Source of the DNA: Escherichia phage ph0011
Reading direction: 5' to 3' (one strand)
Sequence record: OP557969.1
Length of the DNA stretch: 64,000 bases
Made by a program: the position numbers and the translations under genes
The notes under the pieces: generated by a model
Databases searched by the model: none
Told to the model about the DNA's origin: nothing
Seen by the model: the letters and a program-made list of their open reading frames with translations, nothing else
In this document: piece by piece, positions 2,260-52,873 of the stretch
How the letters are laid out: each line of letters opens with the position of its first letter
Numbering within the stretch: the stretch's first letter is position 1

Positions 2260-2515
2260 AGCTGAACTGATCGTACAAACACTGCGTTTATTGAGGGATT
2301 TAGATATCCCACGCATGGATGTGAAACTTGAAGATATCTACATTGAATCTCTTAGTGAAGATTACACCGATACCGTAATGATGCTGAATGACGTGCTTTA
2401 TCGTATAGATAGCATCAGTCGTCTTGGAAGTACTTTAAAAGTGAATATGGAAAGAGTTGATAAACTTTATGTACATATATATAGTCTACCTATTTCAATA
2501 TTAAACTATAGATGA
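2252..2515 (+). CDS. hypothetical protein
   Basis: ATG 2252 overlaps upstream stop; ORF track 2129 start is probably an upstream extension. Confidence 0.45.
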   Translation: MTKAELIVQTLRLLRDLDIPRMDVKLEDIYIESLSEDYTDTVMMLNDVLYRIDSISRLGSTLKVNMERVDKLYVHIYSLPISILNYR

Positions 2516-2802
2516 ATATTATATTGATACAAAAAACATATGCGTTATTGATGAAAGAATATACTAATACTTATGATGAAAAGTGCAGTGCAAATCATAA
2601 TATGTATAAATTCATTACCCAAGAGTACAGGGATTATATATATGCTGCGTTAGTGGGTAGATATTTCAGTACTAAAAAACGTAAAGAACTCAAAGTTGTA
2701 GATATTACTTTTTTCTACAACGGGCATATAACAATTCATGGTGTTGAACATAATTCACAAATATATCGTAACTATTCATTCAATGAGGTAACAATTATAT
2801 GA
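2512..2802 (+). CDS. small protein, divergent member of NDIQFTY family
   Basis: N-terminal LIQKTY resembles IQFTY motif; start/stop overlap. Confidence 0.5.
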   Translation: MNIILIQKTYALLMKEYTNTYDEKCSANHNMYKFITQEYRDYIYAALVGRYFSTKKRKELKVVDITFFYNGHITIHGVEHNSQIYRNYSFNEVTII

Positions 2803-2981
2803 GAGTAGTATTTTTTATCTGGAGTCTTTTCTCACTAGCAGTACTGACAGTTTCAGGTGCTTATTCTTTTTTAACAATGAACACATGGTATGTTAATTTA
2901 CTATTCCCAATTGTTGGTGTCGGTTTAGGATTTACTTTACATAGTGTATGTAAGGATTACAATGACAAATACAACAAATGA
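2799..2981 (+). CDS. small membrane protein
   Basis: two hydrophobic segments (FIWSLFSLAVLTV, LLFPIVGVGLGF). Confidence 0.45.
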   Translation: MRVVFFIWSLFSLAVLTVSGAYSFLTMNTWYVNLLFPIVGVGLGFTLHSVCKDYNDKYNK

Positions 2982-3240
2982 AGTTCTTATTGCTGAAACA
3001 ATGAATATGATTTATTTTATTACTACGGCACAGGATTTGTCTTATCCAGTGAAATCGTTACTTAGGTCAATGTATATTGATATTGTAAAAGAATATTATA
3101 AATCTAAACACAGAAGTATTATTAGTGTTTATCGTGATTATGAAAGGATTCGTATTTTATTCTGGAACAAGAACCGAGTTCGTGAGGAATGTGATCTAGT
3201 AGATTTTAAATTAGAGAATCTTTATTGTTACAAAATTTAA
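2962..3240 (+). CDS. hypothetical small protein (possible divergent NDIQFTY-family member)
   Basis: ATG 2962 after aagga; C-terminal CDLVDFKL resembles family C-termini. Confidence 0.45.
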   Translation: MTNTTNEVLIAETMNMIYFITTAQDLSYPVKSLLRSMYIDIVKEYYKSKHRSIISVYRDYERIRILFWNKNRVREECDLVDFKLENLYCYKI

Positions 3241-3296
3241 AAGATGATAAATATTTTACAAAAGAATGTTTTTTTAGAAAAAAAAGGATTTTGTAA

Positions 3297-4781
3297 ATGA
3301 AAGTATGTACGAATTTAAATGTTACTGGTGATATAACGTCTAATGGGATGACGTTAAGCAAGAATCATAATTATGAGAATTTTAGTGACCTACAAGAAAG
3401 ATGTACTAAAATGCTTTTACAATTTGATAAACCTGAAGTATACGATCCTGATATTACTATTACAATAACTACTAAAAATGTAAATTATACATATAAAGGA
3501 CCAATTGATGGTATGTGTGATATAGAAAATCCTTCATTGTATAAAATTTCCATGTATGTATACACTGACAAAGAGTATTTTATAAACGATGTACAATTAT
3601 CAGATGATGGTAGTTTTCATTTTTCTAAAACGAATAATGGCTCAAAACAATTTAGACTAATTAGAATATCTGATAATAAATGGATTGATACATTAGAATA
3701 TGCATTATTGACTAGAAGTTATATAATACCAGAAACTGAAGATTCGCAAGTTAGAAATACAATGAAAGATCGTTGTTACACATATGATCAAGCGGCAGTT
3801 GCTATTGCATTAATGGTACAAAACCACCCAGAGATGGATAGATATGTATATGGTTTGTGTCAATTGGTTGAGGAAAATGGTGGAATAAAATTTTTTGTTA
3901 ATAGGATATCGGCATTTTCCAATAGAGCATACTATAGAATGGGTAATGCTGCATGGGTATTATATGGATTAGCTTTTTACTTATGGAAATTCCCAGATGG
4001 GGTATATGCGAATTTGGCCCGTGAAAAACTTTTGTTAGGGTTAGAATGGGTATCAACTTTTAAAGTAACTACACCCGGTGATAAAAGAGAAGGTTTATAT
4101 ATGGGTGGAAAAGGAAAATTTATCAATAATGGTTCTCAATTTGACCCGAATTACATTGCTAGTTGGTGTGCAATGGAACACAATTTAGATCTTTGGTTTT
4201 TATTTGATCTATGCTCTGTTATTGGAATTCAGAATTATGATACAATAGCAAAGGAATTACATAATAATATAAATGATAAATTGTGGATAGAAAGTGAAGG
4301 ACGTTTTCGTCAAGGTGTACATGAAACAACAGATGATAATGCTGCTGCATTAGATCAATCATCATGGGGTGGTTTGTATTCTTTATATGCAGATGGTAAT
4401 GATACAAAAGCAGTAAAATGTCACAAATATATGGAACGTTTTATGTTTGGTACGTTGGAATGTGAGGGATATACGCCTTATAATAAATTATTTGGTTATC
4501 CAAATGCAGTACAAGGTGTATGGACTGAAGGAACTGCTGGTGTGGCTTTGTTTGAACGTGCATTGGGTAATGACAGAACTGCCGCAAAATTAATTGCTAA
4601 TTTGAAGCCTATATGTGACCCAGTTTATGGATATCGTGACTCATGTGATGACCCAGATTACGATGTTCTTCCAGATTGGCCTTCCTCGTGTAATACAGCA
4701 TGGATTATTCTGGCTATTAACCCACAAGGTTTCTGGAAAGTTGAAGCCCCACTGATGGATATTGGGCTTGTGAAATATTAA
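3297..4781 (+). CDS. hypothetical 494-aa protein; aromatic-rich helical core loosely reminiscent of (alpha/alpha)6 glycosidase-like folds
   Basis: long ORF; segments WVLYGLAFYLW, SWCAMEHNLDLWFLF, GVWTEGTAGVALF; fold assignment is inference only. Confidence 0.6.
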   Translation: MKVCTNLNVTGDITSNGMTLSKNHNYENFSDLQERCTKMLLQFDKPEVYDPDITITITTKNVNYTYKGPIDGMCDIENPSLYKISMYVYTDKEYFINDVQLSDDGSFHFSKTNNGSKQFRLIRISDNKWIDTLEYALLTRSYIIPETEDSQVRNTMKDRCYTYDQAAVAIALMVQNHPEMDRYVYGLCQLVEENGGIKFFVNRISAFSNRAYYRMGNAAWVLYGLAFYLWKFPDGVYANLAREKLLLGLEWVSTFKVTTPGDKREGLYMGGKGKFINNGSQFDPNYIASWCAMEHNLDLWFLFDLCSVIGIQNYDTIAKELHNNINDKLWIESEGRFRQGVHETTDDNAAALDQSSWGGLYSLYADGNDTKAVKCHKYMERFMFGTLECEGYTPYNKLFGYPNAVQGVWTEGTAGVALFERALGNDRTAAKLIANLKPICDPVYGYRDSCDDPDYDVLPDWPSSCNTAWIILAINPQGFWKVEAPLMDIGLVKY

Positions 4782-22836: not shown

Positions 22837-23090
22837 CATTATTGGCAATCGCTGGTTTTTTGTTTATATTAGTTTTCTTGTTATTATTGGTAATGTTTGT
22901 TATTGATGATAACGATGGATATTTCAGAAATTATAAAGTACGCTTTTCTGCACAAAATAATAAGTATTATATTGTGAATTGTATTAAACATCGTGAAAAG
23001 AATGTAACAAATAGATTTGGATTTACAATTTATTACAAAGACCGCGTAGAGGCTGATATGATTTGTCAAAAACTTAACACAGTAGAATAA
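22833..23090 (+). CDS. small membrane protein
   Basis: N-terminal hydrophobic helix LLAIAGFLFILVFLLLLVMFVI. Confidence 0.5.
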   Translation: MTLLAIAGFLFILVFLLLLVMFVIDDNDGYFRNYKVRFSAQNNKYYIVNCIKHREKNVTNRFGFTIYYKDRVEADMICQKLNTVE

Positions 23091-23117
23091 AAAAAGGAGC
23101 CATATGGCTCCTTTTTT
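23090..23117. terminator. bidirectional rho-independent terminator
   Basis: palindrome ggagccatatggctcc flanked by A-run and T-run. Confidence 0.65.
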
Positions 23118-23320
23118 ATGTTTTTACGTAAGATGTATAGATCATTATTCAATTTGATTTTGTGAATCATATACATAGAACAAAAACCTCCAACACCTGC
23201 TTTTTCATCTTTTAATTTAATGAAGAAAGTATCATCTCTTAGACTTTCATCTGAATTTTCGATACTATCAATAGAAAAAGGAAGTCTTCCGGTTAATGCA
23301 ATTATGCTACTCTAAGGAAA

Positions 23321-23342
23321 GTGCATGATAATTATCATGCAC
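23321..23342. repeat. 22-bp perfect palindrome just 3' of the minus-strand gene
   Basis: gtgcatgataattatcatgcac. Confidence 0.5.
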
Positions 23343-23356
23343 TATATTATTAAAAA

Positions 23357-26029
23357 TTAAGCACTGATTGTTACAGTTGCAGTATCTTTTTTATTACCAT
23401 CCACTGTAGTCACTGTAATGATTACAGAACCTTCTTCTAGAGCAGTTACTAATCCATCATCACTAATAGATACTTTAGTAGGTTTATCTGCACTATAAGT
23501 TACTGATTTGTTAGTTGCTTTAGCTGGTAGAACTTCTGGAACTAGTTGAACTGTTTTAGTTCCTGATAGTGAAAGTTCAGTAGTTTTAGGTGTTAAACTA
23601 ACACTGGATACTGGAACTGGAATATTAACGATTACTGATGTTTGACCAGTAACATCACTACCATCAGCGGCAGTAGCGATAATATTTGCAGTACCATTAG
23701 TTAGTGCAGTTACGATACCAGTATTAGCATCTACTTTAGCAATTTCTGGAGCACTGGATGACCAAATTACATTTTTATTGGTTGCATCACTTGGGGTAAT
23801 TGCAGCAGCCATTTGTTTAGTTGCATTCAATGTAGTCAAAGTTTGATCTTTAGGAGTTACATCAATTGCAGTTACTGGCACTGGAATATTAACAGTAATA
23901 ACACCTTGACCTGTTTTACCACTTCCATCAGCAGCAGTTGCGATAATGTTTGCAGAACCGTTAGTTAACGCAGTTACAACACCAGTACTAGCATCTACTT
24001 TCGCTACAGCAGGTTTACTGGAAGACCATGTTACAGATTTATTTGTTGCGTTAGTTGGAAGAACTTCAGCAGCCATTGCTTGAGTTGCGTTAACAGCAGT
24101 CAATGTTTTAGTTGCTGGAGTAACATTAATAGATGCGACTGGAACTGGAATTGCTACAGTTACCGCACATTTTGCAGTTTTTGCTCCATCAGCAGTTGTT
24201 ACTGTGATATCAGCAGTGCCATTTGCTACAGCAGTGATTAAACCAGTTGGACTAACAGTTGCCACTCCATCAGCAGAAGTACTATAAGTTACTGCTTTGT
24301 TGGTAGCATTAGGTGGTAGTACAGTTGGTGTTAGTTGTTGAGTATCACCGACTGAAGTTAATTTAGCACTTGTTGGAGATACTGATACACTTGCAACAGG
24401 AACTGGAATGTTAACAGTTACCACGCAAACTTTAGAAAATCCACCATCAGATGTGGTTGCTGTAATATTTGCAGTACCGTTTGCAACAGCAGTGATTAAA
24501 CCAGTTGGACTTACCGTTGCGACACCCTCAGCAGAAGTAGTGTATGAAATATCTTTACGACGAGCGTTATCTGGAATAACAGATGCAGTTAGTTGTTGAG
24601 TAGCACCTACAGAAGTTAGGGTTGCTGTCAACGGAGTCATATTAATTCCAGTTACTGGGATCGTTACATCAATCACTGATTCAGCAGTTTTAGCACCATC
24701 ATCAGTGGTAACAGTAATAGTTGTAGTACCGTTATCAACCGAAGTTACTAGACCAGTATTACTAACTTTTGCTACGTCTGGATATGAAGAAACATATGAA
24801 ACTGCTTTATTGGATGCAGTTGCAGGAGCAACGGTTGTTTCTAATTGTTTAGTATCACCTAATGTTGAGAATGTATAAGTACTAGGAGTCATTGTGACAC
24901 CAGATACTGGTGTTTTCACTGTGATTGTAGTAGTGTCCGTTTTAGCACCATCTTCGGTTGTAGCTGTAATCACCACTGTGCCGTTAGCCACACCAGTTAC
25001 TAGACCAGAAGTAGGGTTAACAGTTGCTATATCAGGTGTTGCTGAAGACCACGTGACGTTTTTATTAGTTGCATCATCAGGAGATATTGTAGCAGTTAAT
25101 TGTTGAGTACTGCCAACGTTAATTGATGCAGTTTTAGGAGAAACAACAACACCACTAACTGGAGTTGTTACAGTAACAGTACATTTTGAAACAAATGAAC
25201 CATCAACTGTAGTTGCAATTACATCAGTACTGCCATCTGCAATACCAGTTACCATACCAGTTGGACTTACAGTTGCGAAGCGTGGTATACTGGATGACCA
25301 AATAACACTTTTATCACTTGCATCATCGGGTGATACGGTAGCTGTTAGTTGATGAGTTTTACCAACACCAAGAGATAGAGTTGAAGGAGAAACAACAACA
25401 CCACTAACTGGAGTTGTTACAGTAAATGCACAAACATCGGTGAAACCACCATCATGAGTAGTAACTGTTACATTTGCATTACCATTAGCACGGGCAATTG
25501 CTAAACCAGTTTGAGCATCAACTTCAACTATTGTTGGAGCAGAGGAACTATAACTTACTGTTGGATCATTTGCATAATCTGGATTAATTGTAGCTGATAG
25601 TTGTTGTGTGCTACCAACTTTAAGTGCTACTACTTTGGGTGAAATAATAACACCATTAACTGGTGTAGTATAATCACGTTTAACCACACGACCATTGTTC
25701 AATTTAATAATACGACCCATATAAAGAGTAGCATATCCCTTACTAATCCCATCATCTACATAAATCATAAATGAATTGTCTTGAACCATATTAATTGCGT
25801 CTACTGGCTTAACAGTATTTGGAATGTCGATACCACGGGTATCATACCAACACATGGAAACTTTGTAATATATATCACCATTATCATTGATGAGATCATA
25901 CACGTTACTGGAACGTTGACGGTTAATATATAAAGTTTCGGTTAATACCTTACCATCGATTTTAGCGACAGAAACTTTAATACCACCAATACCAAATGGC
26001 AATTTACCTTCACTAGATATTGCTTTCAT
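23357..26029 (-). CDS. Ig-like (Big_2-type) repeat protein, probable virion surface/decoration or adhesin protein
   Basis: 890 aa; about ten tandem ~85-aa repeats of pattern VSGVVVSP..VG.TQQLTATV.P..ATNK.V.WSS..P..A.V...GLVT..A.G...ITATT.DG; late-promoter motif upstream. Confidence 0.8.
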   Translation of the reverse strand: MKAISSEGKLPFGIGGIKVSVAKIDGKVLTETLYINRQRSSNVYDLINDNGDIYYKVSMCWYDTRGIDIPNTVKPVDAINMVQDNSFMIYVDDGISKGYATLYMGRIIKLNNGRVVKRDYTTPVNGVIISPKVVALKVGSTQQLSATINPDYANDPTVSYSSSAPTIVEVDAQTGLAIARANGNANVTVTTHDGGFTDVCAFTVTTPVSGVVVSPSTLSLGVGKTHQLTATVSPDDASDKSVIWSSSIPRFATVSPTGMVTGIADGSTDVIATTVDGSFVSKCTVTVTTPVSGVVVSPKTASINVGSTQQLTATISPDDATNKNVTWSSATPDIATVNPTSGLVTGVANGTVVITATTEDGAKTDTTTITVKTPVSGVTMTPSTYTFSTLGDTKQLETTVAPATASNKAVSYVSSYPDVAKVSNTGLVTSVDNGTTTITVTTDDGAKTAESVIDVTIPVTGINMTPLTATLTSVGATQQLTASVIPDNARRKDISYTTSAEGVATVSPTGLITAVANGTANITATTSDGGFSKVCVVTVNIPVPVASVSVSPTSAKLTSVGDTQQLTPTVLPPNATNKAVTYSTSADGVATVSPTGLITAVANGTADITVTTADGAKTAKCAVTVAIPVPVASINVTPATKTLTAVNATQAMAAEVLPTNATNKSVTWSSSKPAVAKVDASTGVVTALTNGSANIIATAADGSGKTGQGVITVNIPVPVTAIDVTPKDQTLTTLNATKQMAAAITPSDATNKNVIWSSSAPEIAKVDANTGIVTALTNGTANIIATAADGSDVTGQTSVIVNIPVPVSSVSLTPKTTELSLSGTKTVQLVPEVLPAKATNKSVTYSADKPTKVSISDDGLVTALEEGSVIITVTTVDGNKKDTATVTISA
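23560..25700 (-). repeat. tandem coding repeats (~255-bp period) within Ig-like gene, including identical 40-nt segments
   Basis: ggagaaacaacaacaccactaactggagttgttacagtaa occurs at ~25139 and ~25390. Confidence 0.6.
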
Positions 26030-26066
26030 ATACTTTCCTTTATAAAATTGTATTGTATTGTTATAT

Positions 26067-26074
26067 TATTTATA
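26067..26074 (-). promoter_or_regulatory. T4-type late promoter motif TATAAATA (minus strand)
   Basis: tatttata on + strand, ~37 nt upstream of minus-strand ATG at 26029. Confidence 0.45.
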
Positions 26075-26329
26075 TTATAACAAAATTATTTTAGTATTAA
26101 AAAGGTGTTCGAATGCTTCTTGAAATCTGGCTTGGACAGGTCAATCTTTGCTTTTAAAATGGAATTGTAAACTGCCTCCTGATATGATATCATAGTTTAA
26201 ATGGTAAATCAATAAACTTAACAAAAAAAACTTGCTACTACAGTCATAATTGTTCAATTTTGTACTTGACATAATTAATCAATTATTGTACTATTGTTAA
26301 TGTTCCTTAACTCAAATCCGAGGTAATCA

Positions 26330-26935
26330 ATGAAACTATTCTTGAAAGAGATTGTACAAACCGTTGTTTTAATCGCTGCATTAAATTTTCCAGCAGCGGC
26401 AGAAGTTTCAAAAAAAGCATCTGTTCTTCTATTAAATGAACAGGTTGTATCAATGGATGGTGAACTAAATGATAATACGGTACAAGAAGTAGAGCAGTTG
26501 TGGAAAGAAAAAAGATTTAAAATTTTAACAATTACATCACCTGGGGGTGATTTTGATGCTGGTATTAAAATGGCAAATTTTGTTAGAGACAATGGTATAA
26601 ATTTAATTGTTTCTAAATATTGCAATTCGGCATGTACTGTGGTATTCTTTAGTGTATCCCCAGAAAAGCGATATATGACAAATCAATCAGTACTGGGATT
26701 GCATAATATTTCAATCAAAAGTAACGTTAAAGATATGGATCATACTTTCGTATCTGTTAGACAACTATCATCATTTACTGAAGAAATGGCAACAAAAGTA
26801 GGATTTTTATTTACACTATATTCAGCTAATGGTATTCCACCTAGCATTCTATATAAAGTTAGTCGTTCACGTGGTGAAGATGTTGTTATCTTAACAAAAA
26901 CAGACCTAATAAATTACGGTTCAGTCAATCCATGA
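26330..26935 (+). CDS. secreted ClpP/crotonase-fold (S49-like) protein
   Basis: N-terminal signal-like segment; TSPGGDFDAG resembles ClpP SPGG motif. Confidence 0.5.
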   Translation: MKLFLKEIVQTVVLIAALNFPAAAEVSKKASVLLLNEQVVSMDGELNDNTVQEVEQLWKEKRFKILTITSPGGDFDAGIKMANFVRDNGINLIVSKYCNSACTVVFFSVSPEKRYMTNQSVLGLHNISIKSNVKDMDHTFVSVRQLSSFTEEMATKVGFLFTLYSANGIPPSILYKVSRSRGEDVVILTKTDLINYGSVNP

Positions 26936-40128: not shown

Positions 40129-40136
40129 TATAAATA
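40129..40136 (+). promoter_or_regulatory. T4-type late promoter motif TATAAATA
   Basis: exact octamer 31 nt upstream of ATG 40168. Confidence 0.5.
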
Positions 40137-40167: not shown

Positions 40168-42867
40168 ATGGCAAATAAAATATATGGTGGTATTGATGTT
40201 ACACACAATGTCACAGTAAAAGGTAAGAGAAGTGCTCAGAGCATCAATGATGACGTATTTGATGAAAACGGCAATCTCACAATAGATGCATATACACAAA
40301 ATGATATGTTAGAAATGGTTGGTATGTTACCAATTTCTCGTTATGGTACACAAAACTATCTACCTGCTGGGGTTAATGGTACAACAGTTGGTTCTTCAGA
40401 AAATATTAATTCCAGAAATACAAAATTATTTTTGGAAGATGATAACACTTTAGTAATGTTACGTCCAGGTACTAATGGTAGTACTCAAGGTGTTTATTAT
40501 AGTTATATGACCCAAGCAGTAGGTACAACAAATACAAGTCGTATGGTTAATACTACTCGTGCATATAAACCCAATTACTTTGGTGCAGCATACGCAGTTT
40601 ATTTGTACCCAAGTAGTAATGATATTACTTGCGGTTTAGTGAGAATGGAGAATACCGATGGTACATATGTTGATAAAGTTTTTGTGTCAGATAATAATGG
40701 TACATTGAATGATGCAATGCACACTGGTATTATTCTATCAGATCATACAGCAGTACAACCTTTTGGTGCAATACAATTTGTTATTCGTGCAGAAGATGGT
40801 GCATTATATTTTTTTAGTTTAGACACACCAAATAATACTCTTAAAATATCCGTTACTAAAGTTACTTTTAGTCCAAGTAATAACCCAGGTGGTGGTACTT
40901 ATAGTATTACTAGAATTACTGGTTGGACTACAAGAACTTTTTATAATGCAATGATAGCTGATGAGAACATTGTTCCTACGATGAAAATAAATTCAACAAA
41001 TACCAATGATACTCCATACGTTTTAATTCCAAGCGGTATTATTGGGTTTGGTGTTTATATGACAGATCCAGATTTATATGTTGCACAGAGATCAGGTACA
41101 TCTACATTCAAATTTAGATTATGTGGTGATATGTGGATGAGTAATGGTAGATATGACATACGACCACAACATAGTTTTAGTATGACTTTTGATGTTGCAA
41201 CGAAGCAATGTGCACTCGATAATATGACAACGACTACACCAGTTGCTGTTTATGACAATGGTTCTAGCATGAATGCAACTGGACCTTGCTTGACAACTGA
41301 CCCATTTTATCTTCATGCAGGTGCACGTAATATTTTCAGTAATTATTGCTATATTCCATCAACAGGGGATGCGTTTTGTTCATTTTCACCAAACCTAGCA
41401 GAACCATTGAATTTATCATATGCAAAATACCCACCAAAATCTTTATTTGATTTGATGGATGTTAGAAGTGTGTCAGCAACTAATTTTATTAATGGTGTAG
41501 TAACACCAAGATTTGGTTCAGCAGTTGGGTCATACCAAGTAGGTGTAGAGTTATTACCAAATAACAGTACTAAACAATATTCAAGACGTTCTGGTGATGG
41601 TCGTTTTTTTCCATCCTATGCTGTTCATAAATCTACACCAAACTTTACATTCAAGTCGTTGAATTATGGTACAGTACCTGGTTATGAACCAACACCTGAC
41701 AGAAATTTCATAACCACACCAGAATCACGCATTTTTATAAGTTCAATATCTGGTTCAAACGTCACTACTAATGGTGGTGTTTTGGTTGCTGACATTAGAA
41801 CATCAACACCAATTAGTTTTGATTATAAAGGTAATGTACTGAATAATGGTACAATCAGTATGTCTCAAGATATAATGAATGCTATTAGGAATTCAGAATT
41901 TGCTAAAGTTGCTGGTTCTTGGGATATATCCCCAGCATCAGTAAAAACATTATCAGTTTTCGTTCCACAACAAACTGATATTCCTGTTTTCGCGGTTCTT
42001 GCTGCAACAACTAATTCCAGAGGACTATATATTCGTATGATTGAATTAGGTGTTAATACAAGAACAGGAGATATTACAACGTGGGCATTTAAACGTTTAG
42101 TACATGAAAGTGTTCAAGCTCTGGATTACAAAACTGATGCCGGATATTATCTTGATAGTGGAAGTATTGGTATTACTATATATGATGCTGGTTCTTTTTA
42201 CTTCATTGGTGGTGGTATTCCAGGTTTCTTTCCTACAGTTGGTAATACAGCTTCACCTTTTTTTCGTGCTACTGTAGATAAAGCAAGTAAGCAATTTAAT
42301 AATTTCCATATAGCTGGTAATCGACCTATCTATGCATTAGACGGTCAACCATTTGCTTTACCTGGTATTGGATTTGGTATTCTTCAAAGTATAGATCTTC
42401 AAAACAAAACTATTTTTAGAAAGTATGGAACTACATTAGAAGATTATAATGCATGGACTGATAAAGGAGATCCATTCATTTGCGTTGTTTCACAAGACGT
42501 TGCTCAAGGTTTTATTATATACTTCACTGAAGAGACACCAGTACTGATATCAGGTAAGCACTATACATTACCAATATCAAATATTGATTTAACAAAAGTG
42601 AAAGCAAATCCTGCGAATACTACATTTTATGTGTATATTAAATTAGTGCAGGGTATTGCAAAGTATCATATATCAACAACTGAATTAGCTGAAACTCAGT
42701 CAATATTCTGGATTGGTACAGTGAAAACTAATGATTTACAAATAACCGAAATTAATATCGTTAAACGTTCTCGTTTAGATCTGTTTGGTGCATCCTATGA
42801 CGCTGCCGGAAGTTCATTCCCAGTTAGTTCTGGTTTCCCTTCAGGTTCTGGTAATGTGAATTGGTAA
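40168..42867 (+). CDS. large paralogue A (899 aa), probable late/virion protein of unknown function
   Basis: shares ~110-aa N-terminal and ~120-aa C-terminal regions with 43479-46220; late promoter upstream. Confidence 0.75.
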   Translation: MANKIYGGIDVTHNVTVKGKRSAQSINDDVFDENGNLTIDAYTQNDMLEMVGMLPISRYGTQNYLPAGVNGTTVGSSENINSRNTKLFLEDDNTLVMLRPGTNGSTQGVYYSYMTQAVGTTNTSRMVNTTRAYKPNYFGAAYAVYLYPSSNDITCGLVRMENTDGTYVDKVFVSDNNGTLNDAMHTGIILSDHTAVQPFGAIQFVIRAEDGALYFFSLDTPNNTLKISVTKVTFSPSNNPGGGTYSITRITGWTTRTFYNAMIADENIVPTMKINSTNTNDTPYVLIPSGIIGFGVYMTDPDLYVAQRSGTSTFKFRLCGDMWMSNGRYDIRPQHSFSMTFDVATKQCALDNMTTTTPVAVYDNGSSMNATGPCLTTDPFYLHAGARNIFSNYCYIPSTGDAFCSFSPNLAEPLNLSYAKYPPKSLFDLMDVRSVSATNFINGVVTPRFGSAVGSYQVGVELLPNNSTKQYSRRSGDGRFFPSYAVHKSTPNFTFKSLNYGTVPGYEPTPDRNFITTPESRIFISSISGSNVTTNGGVLVADIRTSTPISFDYKGNVLNNGTISMSQDIMNAIRNSEFAKVAGSWDISPASVKTLSVFVPQQTDIPVFAVLAATTNSRGLYIRMIELGVNTRTGDITTWAFKRLVHESVQALDYKTDAGYYLDSGSIGITIYDAGSFYFIGGGIPGFFPTVGNTASPFFRATVDKASKQFNNFHIAGNRPIYALDGQPFALPGIGFGILQSIDLQNKTIFRKYGTTLEDYNAWTDKGDPFICVVSQDVAQGFIIYFTEETPVLISGKHYTLPISNIDLTKVKANPANTTFYVYIKLVQGIAKYHISTTELAETQSIFWIGTVKTNDLQITEINIVKRSRLDLFGASYDAAGSSFPVSSGFPSGSGNVNW

Positions 42868-42877
42868 TGGAGAGAAT

Positions 42878-43468
42878 ATGTCTTATAAATTTAGAGCAGA
42901 TGTGGAAGCTTATGCTTCCGTTAAATCACAAGGAAAAAATACTGGGACCACGATAACTGTTCGTTCTGGTAATGTGTATCAAGCTGATGCAAATGGGAAT
43001 ATTGATATACCAGTCATGAGTACAGATGATGTGAATTACATTACCAGTTCGTTTCCGTTATCACAATTTGGACCACTTTACAGTGATGAACCATTAGGTA
43101 TTACTTCTGCGGGTTTCAATTTAACTTTCAGCAAAGAATTACCGTTATTCATGGCGGGAGCGGCGTATACCCTCCCAGCAAAAACAATAACAGATCCTGG
43201 TGTTTCTGGTACTAATATTGAAACACATTATGTATATGTTATATTAGATGTTGGGGTAGCTGACTACCTCATTTCTAAAACTCAACGACCTGAAAGTAGT
43301 GTTAATATGTACATCGGAAAACTAACAGTTTTCCCAGATGGCATTACAGGGGTCAGTATAAATAAAGTGTCAAGATTTGACAACTTCAGAGTAAGTTCTA
43401 CAAAAATTGGTTCAGCTATCCCTATCAGTTCTGGTTCACCAGATGTGAATGGTATGATAGAATGGTAA
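42878..43468 (+). CDS. short paralogue (196 aa) carrying the shared C-terminal domain
   Basis: C-terminal VSRFDNFRV..SSGSPDVNGMIEW aligns with C-termini of both large paralogues. Confidence 0.65.
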   Translation: MSYKFRADVEAYASVKSQGKNTGTTITVRSGNVYQADANGNIDIPVMSTDDVNYITSSFPLSQFGPLYSDEPLGITSAGFNLTFSKELPLFMAGAAYTLPAKTITDPGVSGTNIETHYVYVILDVGVADYLISKTQRPESSVNMYIGKLTVFPDGITGVSINKVSRFDNFRVSSTKIGSAIPISSGSPDVNGMIEW

Positions 43469-43478
43469 AGGAATATAT

Positions 43479-46220
43479 ATGGCTTCTAGACGAATTATAG
43501 GAAACGCAGATATACTAGGGAATTTAAAAATTAATGGAAAGTATGCATTACGTTCCCTTAATGGTGTTCCTGCTGACTCTGCTGGTAAAATCACTTATCA
43601 ATATTATGACAAAGCGGAAGTAAATCAGATATTTGATATGCTTCCAGTTTCAAGGGTAGGTGATCAAGATTACCTACCAATGAGTATTAACGGTACTTTT
43701 GAAGGTGCTTCTTCCTTTTCATTTGCAAAAATAATGCAACCTTGTATCATTGAAAATGATGGAACTGGTGTAATTTTACGTGCAGGTACAAATGGAAGTT
43801 CTTATGGTTACTATTATACTTATATTAAAAATATAAGAGATATAGAAACACTAACTCAAGATAATATAATTACAACCAATACGATGTATAGACCGTCTGT
43901 GCTACCAAGTACTGATTACATTTATGAATTTTATGGGTCAAATGCATATGAATTACTATTTTGGGAATCAACTGATAGAACATCATATTACCTTACATTA
44001 ACAAATGAAACATTGAATGAATCAGCACACAAGCATTGCAGAATTCCAAAAACAGCAATAACAAATAAACCAATATATGCACACATCGTAAATGATTCAG
44101 TTTATATATGGTGTATGGATTCAAGTGTATTTAGTAGTGTTCGCGGGTGTGCATTTATTATATACACAGTACCTTTAACTGCATTTAATACTGGTTCAGT
44201 TTCTACCGTAACACAGATTGGTGGTTATTCAGGAAGAACTATAAGAGATGCAACATATACTGCATCTAATAATATTCGCGTTTATGATAGCTATTCTATT
44301 TTAGGTTCAGGTGGTGATGCACTAATAGTATATGATAATGGTATTTCCAGAATAGATTATTGGGAAAATAACGTATTTAATACCCAAGCAGTTCTTAGCC
44401 CAGATGGTACAAAAATAAGAGTTGCGATCTATCCAGGATTCCGTGTTTTCACTGAAACAAAAACATCTAGTGTATATGCACTTGGTATTAGCTTTACATA
44501 TGATATCAGTACTAAAACAATGACACTTGACGGTTCTGAACGTGGTCCAATCAGAGTATCAGCTAATACATCAACTGGTAGTATAACAGTAAGAAACCCG
44601 TTTTCAATCAATATGGAAAACTTTACAGGGTTTTATGACGGTGCACTTGGCAACTATGGTTCAATCTGTCAAACTTCTGATGGTTTTGTTTTCACCACCA
44701 AAGCAAGATGGACATCCACACCAACATATGCAGTACAAACATACAAAGTTTCTGGTACACCTTATGATAGTTGGGTCGCTAAAACACGTACTGCTAGTAA
44801 TTTAAAACGTGTCGAAGTAATGCCAGTTTATGGTTCCCCTGTCGGTGAAAACTTAATAGGTGTTCGTTTCGTAGATAAACGTAAGATACTTGTTGCATGT
44901 TCTGGCACTGCTGATGGAATTTCTTATGGTTATGATAGTACAGTTTTTACTGAAATAGGTGAGAATCCGACTTATGTTTATAAAAACTTGGAACAAAATA
45001 CCACAATGAATGGTTTTGCACCATCAAGTAATAGACACTATTTAAGTACTGATTACAAATATGCAGGTATGATAACATTGGTTGATGCAAATGGAAATGT
45101 CAGCACTTATGGTTCTTCGTTAATAGAAGACATCGATAAACCAGCGTATGGAAAATTCGACCCAGTTACAATGGACTTCGACAGTAATAGATATGAAATT
45201 TCAGGAACAACATTATCAAGTATAGGTGATAATGCAATCGCTAAAGCTGGATTGTCTGGAATAACTGATCATAAAACTGTTTTTTATTATGTACCTGATA
45301 CTACATATTCTAAATCGATTGCAGTCACTTCTGCATTAAACGGTACTACCAATGTGTGTTATATTATTTTTTCCGAAATATCATGTAGTGCAGTTGGTAC
45401 AAGTGGTACTATAATTTTACGTGATATTAATGTTGATACAGCAAGATATACATCAATGACGAATACATTCCAAATTTCACCAAATGAAATGGTCAAACGT
45501 TGGGCTGGTATGACGGTTTCTAAGTTTAGTGGTTTTAACTACTTAGGTGTGAACATTTTATATGGCATTGATACCCCAGGTTGGACTCGTTATCCTAACA
45601 TGATTGCTAAAGTGAAAAATGGTATTATTTCAAGTCAACGATATATGGAAACAACTTATATTTCAAACGCACAATTTGATATAGGTACAATTCCAGGGAT
45701 TGGGTTTGGATATTACCAAATGAACAAAAACGATTATCAAACTAAATCAGTTTTTGCTGTATGTGGTACTACTGAAGCAGATATGGATAAACTAATATCT
45801 GGTAATGAAACGATATCACAGTACTTAGTTATTGCTTCACAGGACGTGGCACAAGGGTTTCATGTATACTTTTCACAAGAAGTACCAGTTTTCTTGGGTG
45901 GAAAGTTTGCAAAGATACCACCGACTATGATAGACTTATCTACTATAAGTACTACACCAGAGAATTCAACATTCTACATATATGCGGTGATGGATAGAGA
46001 TACATCCACAGCATCGTATCAGATATCACTACATCAATTATCAGAAACTATGACATCAACATACATTGGTAAGATAGTAACTAATAATAATGGTATTGCA
46101 TCAATCGAGTCTGAAAAAGTTTCCAGATTCTTGCTATACCGTCCAAGTACCTACAATCGTGGTTCTGCGATCCCAGCAAGTTCTGGTGTTCCGTCAGGAA
46201 CAGGTACACGTTGGAATTAA
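43479..46220 (+). CDS. large paralogue B (913 aa), probable late/virion protein
   Basis: N-terminal MLPVSRVGDQDYLP and C-terminal QDVAQGFHVYFSQEVPV shared with paralogue A. Confidence 0.75.
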   Translation: MASRRIIGNADILGNLKINGKYALRSLNGVPADSAGKITYQYYDKAEVNQIFDMLPVSRVGDQDYLPMSINGTFEGASSFSFAKIMQPCIIENDGTGVILRAGTNGSSYGYYYTYIKNIRDIETLTQDNIITTNTMYRPSVLPSTDYIYEFYGSNAYELLFWESTDRTSYYLTLTNETLNESAHKHCRIPKTAITNKPIYAHIVNDSVYIWCMDSSVFSSVRGCAFIIYTVPLTAFNTGSVSTVTQIGGYSGRTIRDATYTASNNIRVYDSYSILGSGGDALIVYDNGISRIDYWENNVFNTQAVLSPDGTKIRVAIYPGFRVFTETKTSSVYALGISFTYDISTKTMTLDGSERGPIRVSANTSTGSITVRNPFSINMENFTGFYDGALGNYGSICQTSDGFVFTTKARWTSTPTYAVQTYKVSGTPYDSWVAKTRTASNLKRVEVMPVYGSPVGENLIGVRFVDKRKILVACSGTADGISYGYDSTVFTEIGENPTYVYKNLEQNTTMNGFAPSSNRHYLSTDYKYAGMITLVDANGNVSTYGSSLIEDIDKPAYGKFDPVTMDFDSNRYEISGTTLSSIGDNAIAKAGLSGITDHKTVFYYVPDTTYSKSIAVTSALNGTTNVCYIIFSEISCSAVGTSGTIILRDINVDTARYTSMTNTFQISPNEMVKRWAGMTVSKFSGFNYLGVNILYGIDTPGWTRYPNMIAKVKNGIISSQRYMETTYISNAQFDIGTIPGIGFGYYQMNKNDYQTKSVFAVCGTTEADMDKLISGNETISQYLVIASQDVAQGFHVYFSQEVPVFLGGKFAKIPPTMIDLSTISTTPENSTFYIYAVMDRDTSTASYQISLHQLSETMTSTYIGKIVTNNNGIASIESEKVSRFLLYRPSTYNRGSAIPASSGVPSGTGTRWN

Positions 46221-52253: not shown

Positions 52254-52546
52254 GTATATTGTAAAATGACAACGGACATTGTAAAAAATGGACACTGAAA
52301 ACCTAATTCACTTGAAAATGTAAAGGATAGATGAGCTTTACCGTTGTAGCGAACAGCAGAAGAAACCCGTTAGAGTACTGGCATTCAAACAAACACGATG
52401 TAAGACCACGAATCACGGCGACACGGCTGTATAAAGAACTCCGATAAGCATACAGAGAGTTCCTAGATAGATGTATAAGGTTCGCACCTTACCAGATTTG
52501 CTAAGGGAGTTTAAGAATGGCGAACGCAATTTTTACAAGAAAGTTG

Positions 52547-52563
52547 CGTCCAAAATTTGAGAA
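52547..52563 (+). repeat. 17-nt direct repeat copy 1 (cgtccaaaatttgagaa)
   Basis: identical to 52700-52716; extended repeat agaaag..cgtccaaaatttgagaa. Confidence 0.6.
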
Positions 52564-52699
52564 CAAGTACTACTTTGATCGAATAGAGTTAGTACTGAGT
52601 GCTGTTGATGAAAAGACCAGCGACCGTTGCATATGACTGCGATAGAGAGAAACCGAGCAACCCGCTTTCGCTCTCTAAATCTTTGGTACGAGAAAGATC

Positions 52700-52716
52700 C
52701 GTCCAAAATTTGAGAA
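52700..52716 (+). repeat. 17-nt direct repeat copy 2 (cgtccaaaatttgagaa)
   Basis: identical to 52547-52563. Confidence 0.6.
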
Positions 52717-52754
52717 ATTCGCAATTCGATAATATCCGATGCCATCAGCGTCAA

Positions 52755-52780
52755 GAAGAGACTTAATTGTCTCTTTTTTA
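52755..52780 (+). terminator. rho-independent terminator
   Basis: stem gagac/gtctc (loop ttaatt) followed by TTTTTT. Confidence 0.6.
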
Positions 52781-52784
52781 TTAC

Positions 52785-52809
52785 TTTCATTCCCCTGTGG
52801 GGGATGAAA
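52785..52809 (+). other. 11-bp-stem hairpin
   Basis: tttcattcccc tgt ggggatgaaa; no T-tract. Confidence 0.5.
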
Positions 52810-52873
52810 TAGTCCTCAACAAATCCCGTCAAGTTATTAAAATACATTATCATTATTCAGAAGTAACAAGTTT

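Follow-up and report, generated by a model that had tools for sequence, protein, structure and literature searches.

A minus-strand gene of Escherichia phage ph0011 encoding nine Big_2 Ig-like units on a conserved N-terminal domain: a candidate virion surface fibre gene

What is the role of a large minus-strand gene that encodes, for most of its length, a string of immunoglobulin (Ig)-like domains? Such a gene is found in Escherichia phage ph0011 (sequence record OP557969.1), in a stretch of 64,000 nucleotides (nt) that was analysed as a whole and is called the window here. An earlier note, made from the sequence alone, had described a minus-strand gene of 890 amino acids (aa), and this description holds: the gene is real and intact, an uninterrupted open reading frame (ORF) at 23357..26029 (minus strand) with an ATG start and a Shine-Dalgarno sequence upstream. 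Its product is composed of a conserved N-terminal domain, which we call the anchor domain after its presumed role, and nine Big_2 units. The product is probably a late-expressed, non-essential protein of the virion surface, in which the anchor would hold a projecting Ig fibre on the particle, and which would resemble Hoc of phage T4 in function.

The window region shares 91% identity with Escherichia phage UE-S1 (358 kb) and 86% with phage A4 (355 kb), which are both listed under Asteriusvirus; in other parts of the window, the identity to 121Q, phAPEC6 and over 20 further Asteriusvirus genomes is about 93%. These identities indicate that the source of the window is a jumbo myophage of E. coli of the RaK2/121Q-like kind, with UE-S1 and A4 as its closest relatives.

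The 890-aa protein has a mass of 90.3 kDa and an isoelectric point (pI) of 5.0. Its Ig array is acidic (pI 4.7) and rich in Thr, Val, Ala and Ser, whereas the first 121 residues are basic (pI 8.9). The Pfam family Big_2 (PF02368) matches the protein in nine stretches with 442.5 bits against a cut-off of 22.8 (E 9e-136), and the best stretch spans profile positions 1-79 of 79. The earlier note had counted about ten Big_2-type repeats behind an N-terminal domain; the arrangement stands and the count is corrected to nine. With unit borders set at the recurring linkers TPV(S/N)GV and IPV(T/P)(G/V), the gene is divided as follows.

23357..26029, minus strand: coding sequence, 890 aa, anchor plus nine Big_2 units; uninterrupted ORF, ATG start
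25667..26029, minus strand: N-terminal anchor domain, aa 1-121; phrog_33171/phrog_10468 family, predicted all-beta with one short helix
25415..25666, minus strand: Ig1, aa 122-205; orthologue of UE-S1 unit 1 (96% nt identity)
25166..25414, minus strand: Ig2, aa 206-288; not in UE-S1 or A4, with a 41-nt exact repeat on both sides
24914..25165, minus strand: Ig3, aa 289-372; equals UE-S1 unit 2 (94% nt)
24662..24913, minus strand: Ig4, aa 373-456; equals UE-S1 unit 3 (99% nt)
24410..24661, minus strand: Ig5, aa 457-540; equals UE-S1 unit 4 (97% nt)
24152..24409, minus strand: Ig6, aa 541-626; not in UE-S1, equals A4 unit 6 (86% nt)
23888..24151, minus strand: Ig7, aa 627-714; equals UE-S1 unit 5 (95%) and A4 unit 5 (94%)
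23624..23887, minus strand: Ig8, aa 715-802; without orthologue in UE-S1 or A4, closest paralogue Ig7 (74% nt)
23360..23623, minus strand: Ig9, aa 803-890; equals UE-S1 unit 6 (95%) and A4 unit 7 (93%)

The Ig-like nature of the repeats was put to structure prediction on Ig1 and was supported by it. Anchor plus Ig1, and the anchor alone, were modelled by AlphaFold2 with a 23-sequence alignment. The model of anchor plus Ig1 reached a predicted local distance difference test score (pLDDT) of 86.5. In it, Ig1 (residues 122-205) is predicted as an all-beta domain of nine short strands and no helix at pLDDT 81-98. In a sequence search of the PDB, the Big_2 units match solved Big_2-containing chains.

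The N-terminal domain had been described as a unique domain of about 125 aa. It is indeed a distinct domain, of about 121 aa, but it is not unique. Nothing in Pfam matches it, and among hidden Markov models phrog_33171 matches across residues 1-115 (E 1.5e-16) and phrog_10468 with E 4.9e-8; both families are labelled 'virion structural protein'. The alignment of 12 members has eight invariant columns, with 27-36% aa identity between genera. A single anchor found nothing in IMG/VR and just two near-identical fragments in a word-indexed protein database; it took a profile of 12 anchors to find 22 members, and a profile search of 1.84 billion representative proteins gave 99 family clusters. The domain occupies the N-terminus, from residue 1 to about 123, in nearly all of these clusters, whose proteins are between 76 and 1859 aa long. 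The payloads of the sampled members are one to eight Big_2 domains (four to eight in the sampled long ones), Invasin_D3/Big_1, HYDIN-like Ig domains, or none. By these comparisons the anchor domain is the constant module of the family and the C-terminal payload is the variable one. Yersinia phage fHe-Yen9-04 has two tandem anchor-family genes (2495-4479), and one of them, g095c (345 aa), has a payload without Pfam match, so the anchor also carries cargo other than Big_2.

The model of the anchor alone is all-beta with one short helix (pLDDT 86.8, predicted template modelling score 0.80). A fold search with this model gave no significant match among solved structures in the PDB, including Hoc or any other virion protein, and the anchor sequence gave only spurious repeat matches to engineered OspA in the PDB.

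Orthologues were found in the same place in other phages. A lone opposite-strand gene adjoining the dCMP deaminase gene is present also in RaK2, 121Q, GAP32, BF, CBB, Yen9-04, EJP2 and Munch; by this synteny the position and strand arrangement of the gene are kept across the RaK2-like phage group. The orthologues UES1_422, A4_464, RaK2 gp496, GAP32 gp111, CBB_112, 121Q gp471 and phAPEC6 gp347 belong to the same anchor family with 27-98% aa identity. The numbers of their Big_2 units are very different:

121Q gp471 and phAPEC6 gp347: 125 aa, 0 Big_2 units
EJP2_118: 139 aa, no Big_2 unit as judged by length alone (too short)
RaK2 gp496, CBB_112 and Munch_133: 212-224 aa, 1 Big_2 unit
GAP32 gp111 and BF_0105: 301-303 aa, 2 Big_2 units
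UE-S1 UES1_422: 633 aa, 6 Big_2 units
A4_464: 722 aa, 7 Big_2 units
Escherichia phage ph0011 gene: 890 aa, 9 Big_2 units

No other member examined so far has as many Big_2 units behind this anchor as the window gene: nine, against 0-7 in the named phages and up to eight in a metagenomic protein, P0024 (820 aa). In P0024, which has 7-8 Big_2 units, a long peptide stretch (...VASVNSTGLVTALTNGTSVITATTVDGS...) recurs in near-identical form in two of the units. Since its anchor is of the GAP32 type, its array was expanded independently, in another lineage, and the expansion is apparently more recent. The gene goes unmentioned in the papers on UE-S1 and fEgEco12.

Several databases call the family by another name. 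CBB_112, the RaK2 RefSeq record, GAP32 and several PHROGs bear the annotation 'major tail protein', according to which the gene product would be a component of the tail tube or sheath. These labels arise because Big_2 resembles the Ig appendages of siphophage tube proteins: the matches to tube proteins (T5 pb6, 5ngj/7qg9; 8hqz) are confined to their C-terminal Ig domain (chain residues about 367-464), and the fold search with the anchor yields no tail-tube or sheath-like fold. The sheath and tube of the relatives are other, identified proteins, for example phAPEC6 gp277. The domain-level matches effectively refute a tube or sheath role, and we regard it as highly improbable.

When is the gene expressed? 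The earlier note had pointed to a late-promoter motif on the minus strand ahead of the gene, and this is confirmed.

26067..26074, minus strand: TATAAATA, T4-type late-promoter-like motif, exact octamer 45 nt before the ATG
26033..26040, minus strand: Shine-Dalgarno sequence AAGGAAAG, preceding the ATG

The position of the motif is kept in seven orthologue upstream regions, from several genera, and is shared by most of the RaK2-like orthologues: in those of UE-S1, A4, GAP32, BF, CBB and Yen9-04 (g094c), ATAAATA precedes the ATG by 41-45 nt. As a T4-type late promoter, the octamer would be the -10 element, with a transcript start some 6-8 nt downstream of it. The octamer TATAAATA is rare in the window, with four copies against 12.8 +/- 3.4 expected from dinucleotide-preserving shuffles, and three of the four lie 19-38 nt upstream of start codons (counted from the last base of the motif). 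In the related phage CBB the motif precedes structural genes and was likened to the T4 late promoter, and a gp55-like sigma factor was reported there (PMC5259590). Late transcription of the gene is therefore likely on the grounds of motif and position.

All four copies of the octamer point in the same direction as the genes around them, as a functional signal that is avoided elsewhere would. Two of them lie at another locus on the plus strand, where two paralogous genes of about 900 aa (phrog_3573; 40168-42867 and 43479-46220) are separated by a 196-aa fragment of the same family (42878-43468). One exact copy, at 40129-40136, is 32 nt before the first of these genes, and another, at 43357-43364, is within the fragment. 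The phrog_3573 genes may be late or virion genes.

Is the product part of the virion? Direct detection comes from two orthologues. Mass spectrometry of purified virions identified phAPEC6 gp347 (14.1 kDa), which is an anchor only and 38% identical to the window anchor, by 8 unique peptides at 75.2% coverage (PMC7247149 Table 1). CBB_112, composed of anchor and one Ig unit, was detected in the same manner in purified virions with 4 peptides and 24.3% coverage (PMC5259590 Table 4). These detections make the virion location plausible for the window protein, too. Since in phAPEC6 the anchor alone is a virion component, we infer that the anchor is the particle-binding part.

A different idea is that the product is not a virion protein and acts during infection, inside the cell or on its surface, for example as an adhesin-like protein on the infected cell or in superinfection exclusion. 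The gene lies among genes for nucleotide metabolism and proteases, outside any structural module, and Ig-like arrays are common in bacterial surface adhesins, as seen in matches to intimin and invasin. However, the two detections above place orthologues in purified virions, the N-terminus (MKAISSEGKLPFGIGG...), as read from the sequence, has no hydrophobic signal or transmembrane segment, and the late-promoter motif is one that the gene has in common with structural genes. A role apart from the virion is therefore improbable in our estimate.

We favour a virion surface fibre. In this model the basic N-terminal domain of about 121 residues would fix the protein to the particle, somewhat more likely on the capsid than on the tail. 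The acidic string of nine Big_2 units, joined by short Pro-rich linkers (TPVSGV, IPVPV), would project outward as a flexible fibre of roughly 35-45 nm, by analogy with T4 Hoc at about 45 Å per domain. The fibre may make weak multivalent contacts with glycans of bacteria or mucus, or may keep the particles dispersed.

Several points weigh against this model. The mass-spectrometric evidence comes from phAPEC6 gp347 and CBB_112 and not from the window protein (PMC7247149; PMC5259590), and the main text of the RaK2 paper has no statement of direct detection of gp496 by mass spectrometry. The phAPEC6 tail also carries decoration proteins without an assigned gene (PMC7247149). The capsid of the Klebsiella jumbo myophage phiKp24 was modelled from the major capsid protein alone, and a decoration protein was not seen (PMC9700779, a paper that mentions RaK2). 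Glycan binding is suggested solely by analogy with other phage Ig-like proteins.

Where on the particle would the fibre sit? The capsids of 121Q and phAPEC6 have T=28 and carry decoration densities to which no gene has been assigned (PMC5646251; PMC7247149). Density 1 lies at each hexon centre, was called 'fibre-anchoring' and has a dimeric shape; density 2 forms a second layer and is equimolar with the capsid protein (PMC5646251; PMC7247149). Proteins of the T4 Hoc family bind at the centre of hexamers of the major capsid protein. The gene family is a candidate for these never-assigned densities of 121Q and phAPEC6. It is possible, though we hold this only tentatively, that the anchor family is the missing capsid decoration protein of 121Q/RaK2-type phages, at the hexon centre or in the second layer. 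It would then be a display platform independent of Hoc, with a previously unseen fold of two small beta-barrels and a payload of none to nine or more Ig or Ig-like domains, which would be tuned by unit-wise recombination in a terminator-bounded cassette. If this is true, hundreds of fibres of about 40 nm would cover the T=28 head of Escherichia phage ph0011.

On the tail, the protein could be a tail fibre or side fibre, that is, a primary receptor-binding protein that sets the host range. Some PHROG matches are labelled 'tail fiber' (phrog_14417, phrog_12846), 121Q, phAPEC6 and CBB carry long hairs on tail and capsid without assigned genes, and the authors of the RaK2 study proposed a role of gp496 in phage-host interaction. 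However, every tail-labelled match is confined to the Ig units, and in Pfam, NCBIfam and PHROGs no trimerisation, beta-helix, coiled-coil, collagen-like, receptor-binding tip or chaperone domain was found in the protein. Hairs of about 119 nm are beyond the reach of the short orthologues in the hairy phages, which have 0 Ig units in 121Q and phAPEC6 and one in CBB. In addition, phages that are otherwise alike have payloads of anything between 0 and 9 units, which argues for an accessory role. We therefore consider a receptor-binding tail fibre unlikely. We also considered the anchor-family protein as the tail hair of CBB and phAPEC6 and rejected it, as the orthologues there have one and 0 Ig units.

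How did the array reach nine units? The earlier note had seen near-identical internal DNA repeats and proposed a recent intragenic duplication or recombination. The first is overstated: pairwise global nt identity among the nine units is 51-74%, and Tandem Repeats Finder shows a single weak 264-nt array with 75% match. Identical stretches of about 40 nt shared by some units are real and beyond chance, but there is one case, of 41 nt, besides one exact repeat of 26 nt (24511/24253); all other exact intragenic repeats are of 16 nt or less.

25385..25425, minus strand: 41-nt exact direct repeat, copy 1, at the Ig1/Ig2 junction, encoding TVTTPVSGVVVSP
25136..25176, minus strand: 41-nt exact direct repeat, copy 2, at the Ig2/Ig3 junction, 249 nt from copy 1

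In 200,000 shuffles of the in-register match pattern, for units 62% identical in register, no run was as long as 41 nt, and the longest was 34.

The comparison with relatives shows changes by whole units. Outside three in-frame gaps of 249, 258 and 264 nt, the window gene and its UE-S1 counterpart are 95-97% identical, and the gaps correspond to the whole of Ig2, Ig6 and Ig8. The 249-nt gap begins at the first base of the 41-nt repeat and is followed by the second copy, so recombination between the two copies would give exactly the UE-S1 arrangement. The other gaps are flanked by shorter junction identity, the 264-nt gap by GTTAATATTCCAGT and the 258-nt gap by the ATTCCAGTTCC type. Ig2 and Ig8 have no orthologue in either UE-S1 or A4. 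Ig6 has an orthologue in A4 (86%), where it comes after the Ig7 orthologue, the reverse of the order in the window; this shows that the UE-S1 lineage lost the unit and that the order of units has changed. The synonymous divergence (dS) of the window gene from A4 differs from part to part: it is 0.11 in Ig7 and Ig9, 0.25 in the anchor and 0.68-1.34 in Ig1-Ig5, a mosaic that points to exchange between diverged alleles. The variation in unit number suspected earlier is thus real between close relatives, with six units in UE-S1, seven in A4 and nine in the window.

Recent tandem duplication was rejected on dS. Paralogous units differ by a dS of 0.72-0.97, in comparison with 0.03-0.18 for the orthologous units of window and UE-S1, and Ig2 and Ig8 have diverged from their nearest paralogues to the same degree as the old units. 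It follows that the units are old and that Ig2 and Ig8, which are specific to the window, were not freshly copied from adjacent units. The 41-nt identity around a diverged unit is best explained as the trace left by a recent insertion or conversion mediated by the junction. The ratio of nonsynonymous to synonymous divergence (dN/dS) is 0.00-0.49 for every domain pair compared; purifying selection thus acts on every unit, and the gene must be functional. Over evolutionary time, whole units have probably been gained, lost or exchanged by in-register recombination at the similar unit junctions.

The array could also be a recent and active tandem expansion, like a contingency locus, with a copy number that varies within the phage population. 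The exact repeats of 41 and 26 nt are in register, the number of units is not equal among relatives, and two short-read contigs of close relatives end in the 41-nt repeat. On the other hand, the identity between units (51-74% nt), their dS and the single weak array in Tandem Repeats Finder are at odds with recent expansion, and the repeats are a good substrate for just one precise deletion, that of Ig2. The contig breaks are what is expected of k-mer assembly at such a repeat and carry no sign of heterogeneity. Active expansion is thus quite improbable, and gain, loss and exchange of old units is preferred. The two contigs, L012 (ERR11566739, 28 kb, 95% identity) and L013 (ERR10686700, 911 nt, 87%), end at window positions 25391 and 25408, both inside the repeat, which means that the repeat breaks k-mer assemblies. 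L012 has a frameshift in the anchor domain; this could be a real lesion or an error of the assembly.

The gene forms a cassette with a defined edge. In comparison with 121Q, the flanks are 82-88% identical, on one side as far as the terminator (23117) and on the other from position 26528 onwards, whereas 23118-26527 has no alignment at the DNA level. The unaligned stretch is the whole minus-strand cassette and the first 200 nt or so of the neighbouring ClpP-like gene, and the terminator marks its exact left edge.

23090-23117, no strand assigned: bidirectional intrinsic terminator hairpin AAAAAAGGAGCCATATGGCTCCTTTTTT with A6/T6 flanks; conserved left edge of the cassette, present also in 121Q and EJP2
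23123-23310, minus strand: decayed stand-alone anchor paralogue of the A4_463 type; start codon absent, internal deletion of about 60 codons

Because the hairpin AAAAAAGGAGCCATATGGCTCCTTTTTT has a symmetric A-run and T-run, it can terminate transcription from both directions. The gene had been said to be flanked by this terminator; the hairpin is present, but about 240 nt separate it from the stop codon, and the remnant of a decayed paralogue lies between the two. The remnant is 75% identical in aa sequence to A4_463 over residues 74-122. A4 has two more minus-strand genes at the locus that encode an anchor only, A4_463 (124 aa, 'putative structural protein') and the truncated A4_466 (65 aa), and in UE-S1 the copy of the A4_463-type gene decayed differently, by frameshifts.

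The claim that the gene is the only convincing one on the minus strand needs a small correction: it is the sole large one, but a small minus-strand ORF at 52533-52853 is also present and is annotated in UE-S1 (UES1_463). This ORF encodes 106 aa from the first start (85 aa in UES1_463) and lies in a gap between plus-strand genes. Over 20 Asteriusvirus genomes share its region at about 93% identity, and the ORF has no match in PHROG.

Ig-like surface fibres influence the adhesion of phages to bacterial envelopes and mucus, which bears on gut ecology and phage therapy, and the closest relatives of this phage were isolated on uropathogenic and Crohn's-associated E. coli. At this locus one conserved anchor carries 0 to 9 domains in different phages, a natural series that could be used to probe how fibre length relates to adsorption or retention. 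The anchor itself could act as a display handle on jumbo phages.

Which known system does the protein resemble? T4 Hoc is an acidic fibre that the phage can do without; its Ig-like domains are joined to a small binding domain, and its relatives reuse this domain with other numbers of Ig domains or other payloads (PMC10385173). The window protein has the same plan, an acidic string of Ig domains on a small putative binding domain that is reused with varied payloads, and as an analogy the 'Hoc-like' comparison of the earlier note is apt. As homology it fails: the anchor of Hoc is C-terminal whereas that of the window protein is N-terminal and its C-terminus is a Big_2 unit, Hoc has three Ig-like domains against nine Big_2 units, no Hoc family match was found in Pfam, PHROGs or NCBIfam, and the predicted anchor fold has no match to solved Hoc. 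The 'Hoc-like' protein of Klebsiella phage PMBT63 was considered as a family member and rejected, being a true T4-type Hoc. The polarity of the window protein is shared with the capsid decoration protein pb10 of T5, but pb10 has a single Ig-like domain, and the anchor matches it neither in sequence nor in fold. Because of the anchor position and the failed homology tests, the protein is placed in neither the Hoc nor the pb10 family. Phage Ig-like domains in general include Big_2 on virion proteins, for which weak carbohydrate-mediated adhesion was proposed (Fraser et al. 2006, as cited in PMC5259590); there the Ig domain is an appendage on a tube or capsid protein, whereas here the array is the bulk of a dedicated protein. 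The window protein would therefore belong to a known kind of phage decoration protein and leaves the current understanding in place, with Hoc as its closest functional parallel and a separate anchor family as its base.

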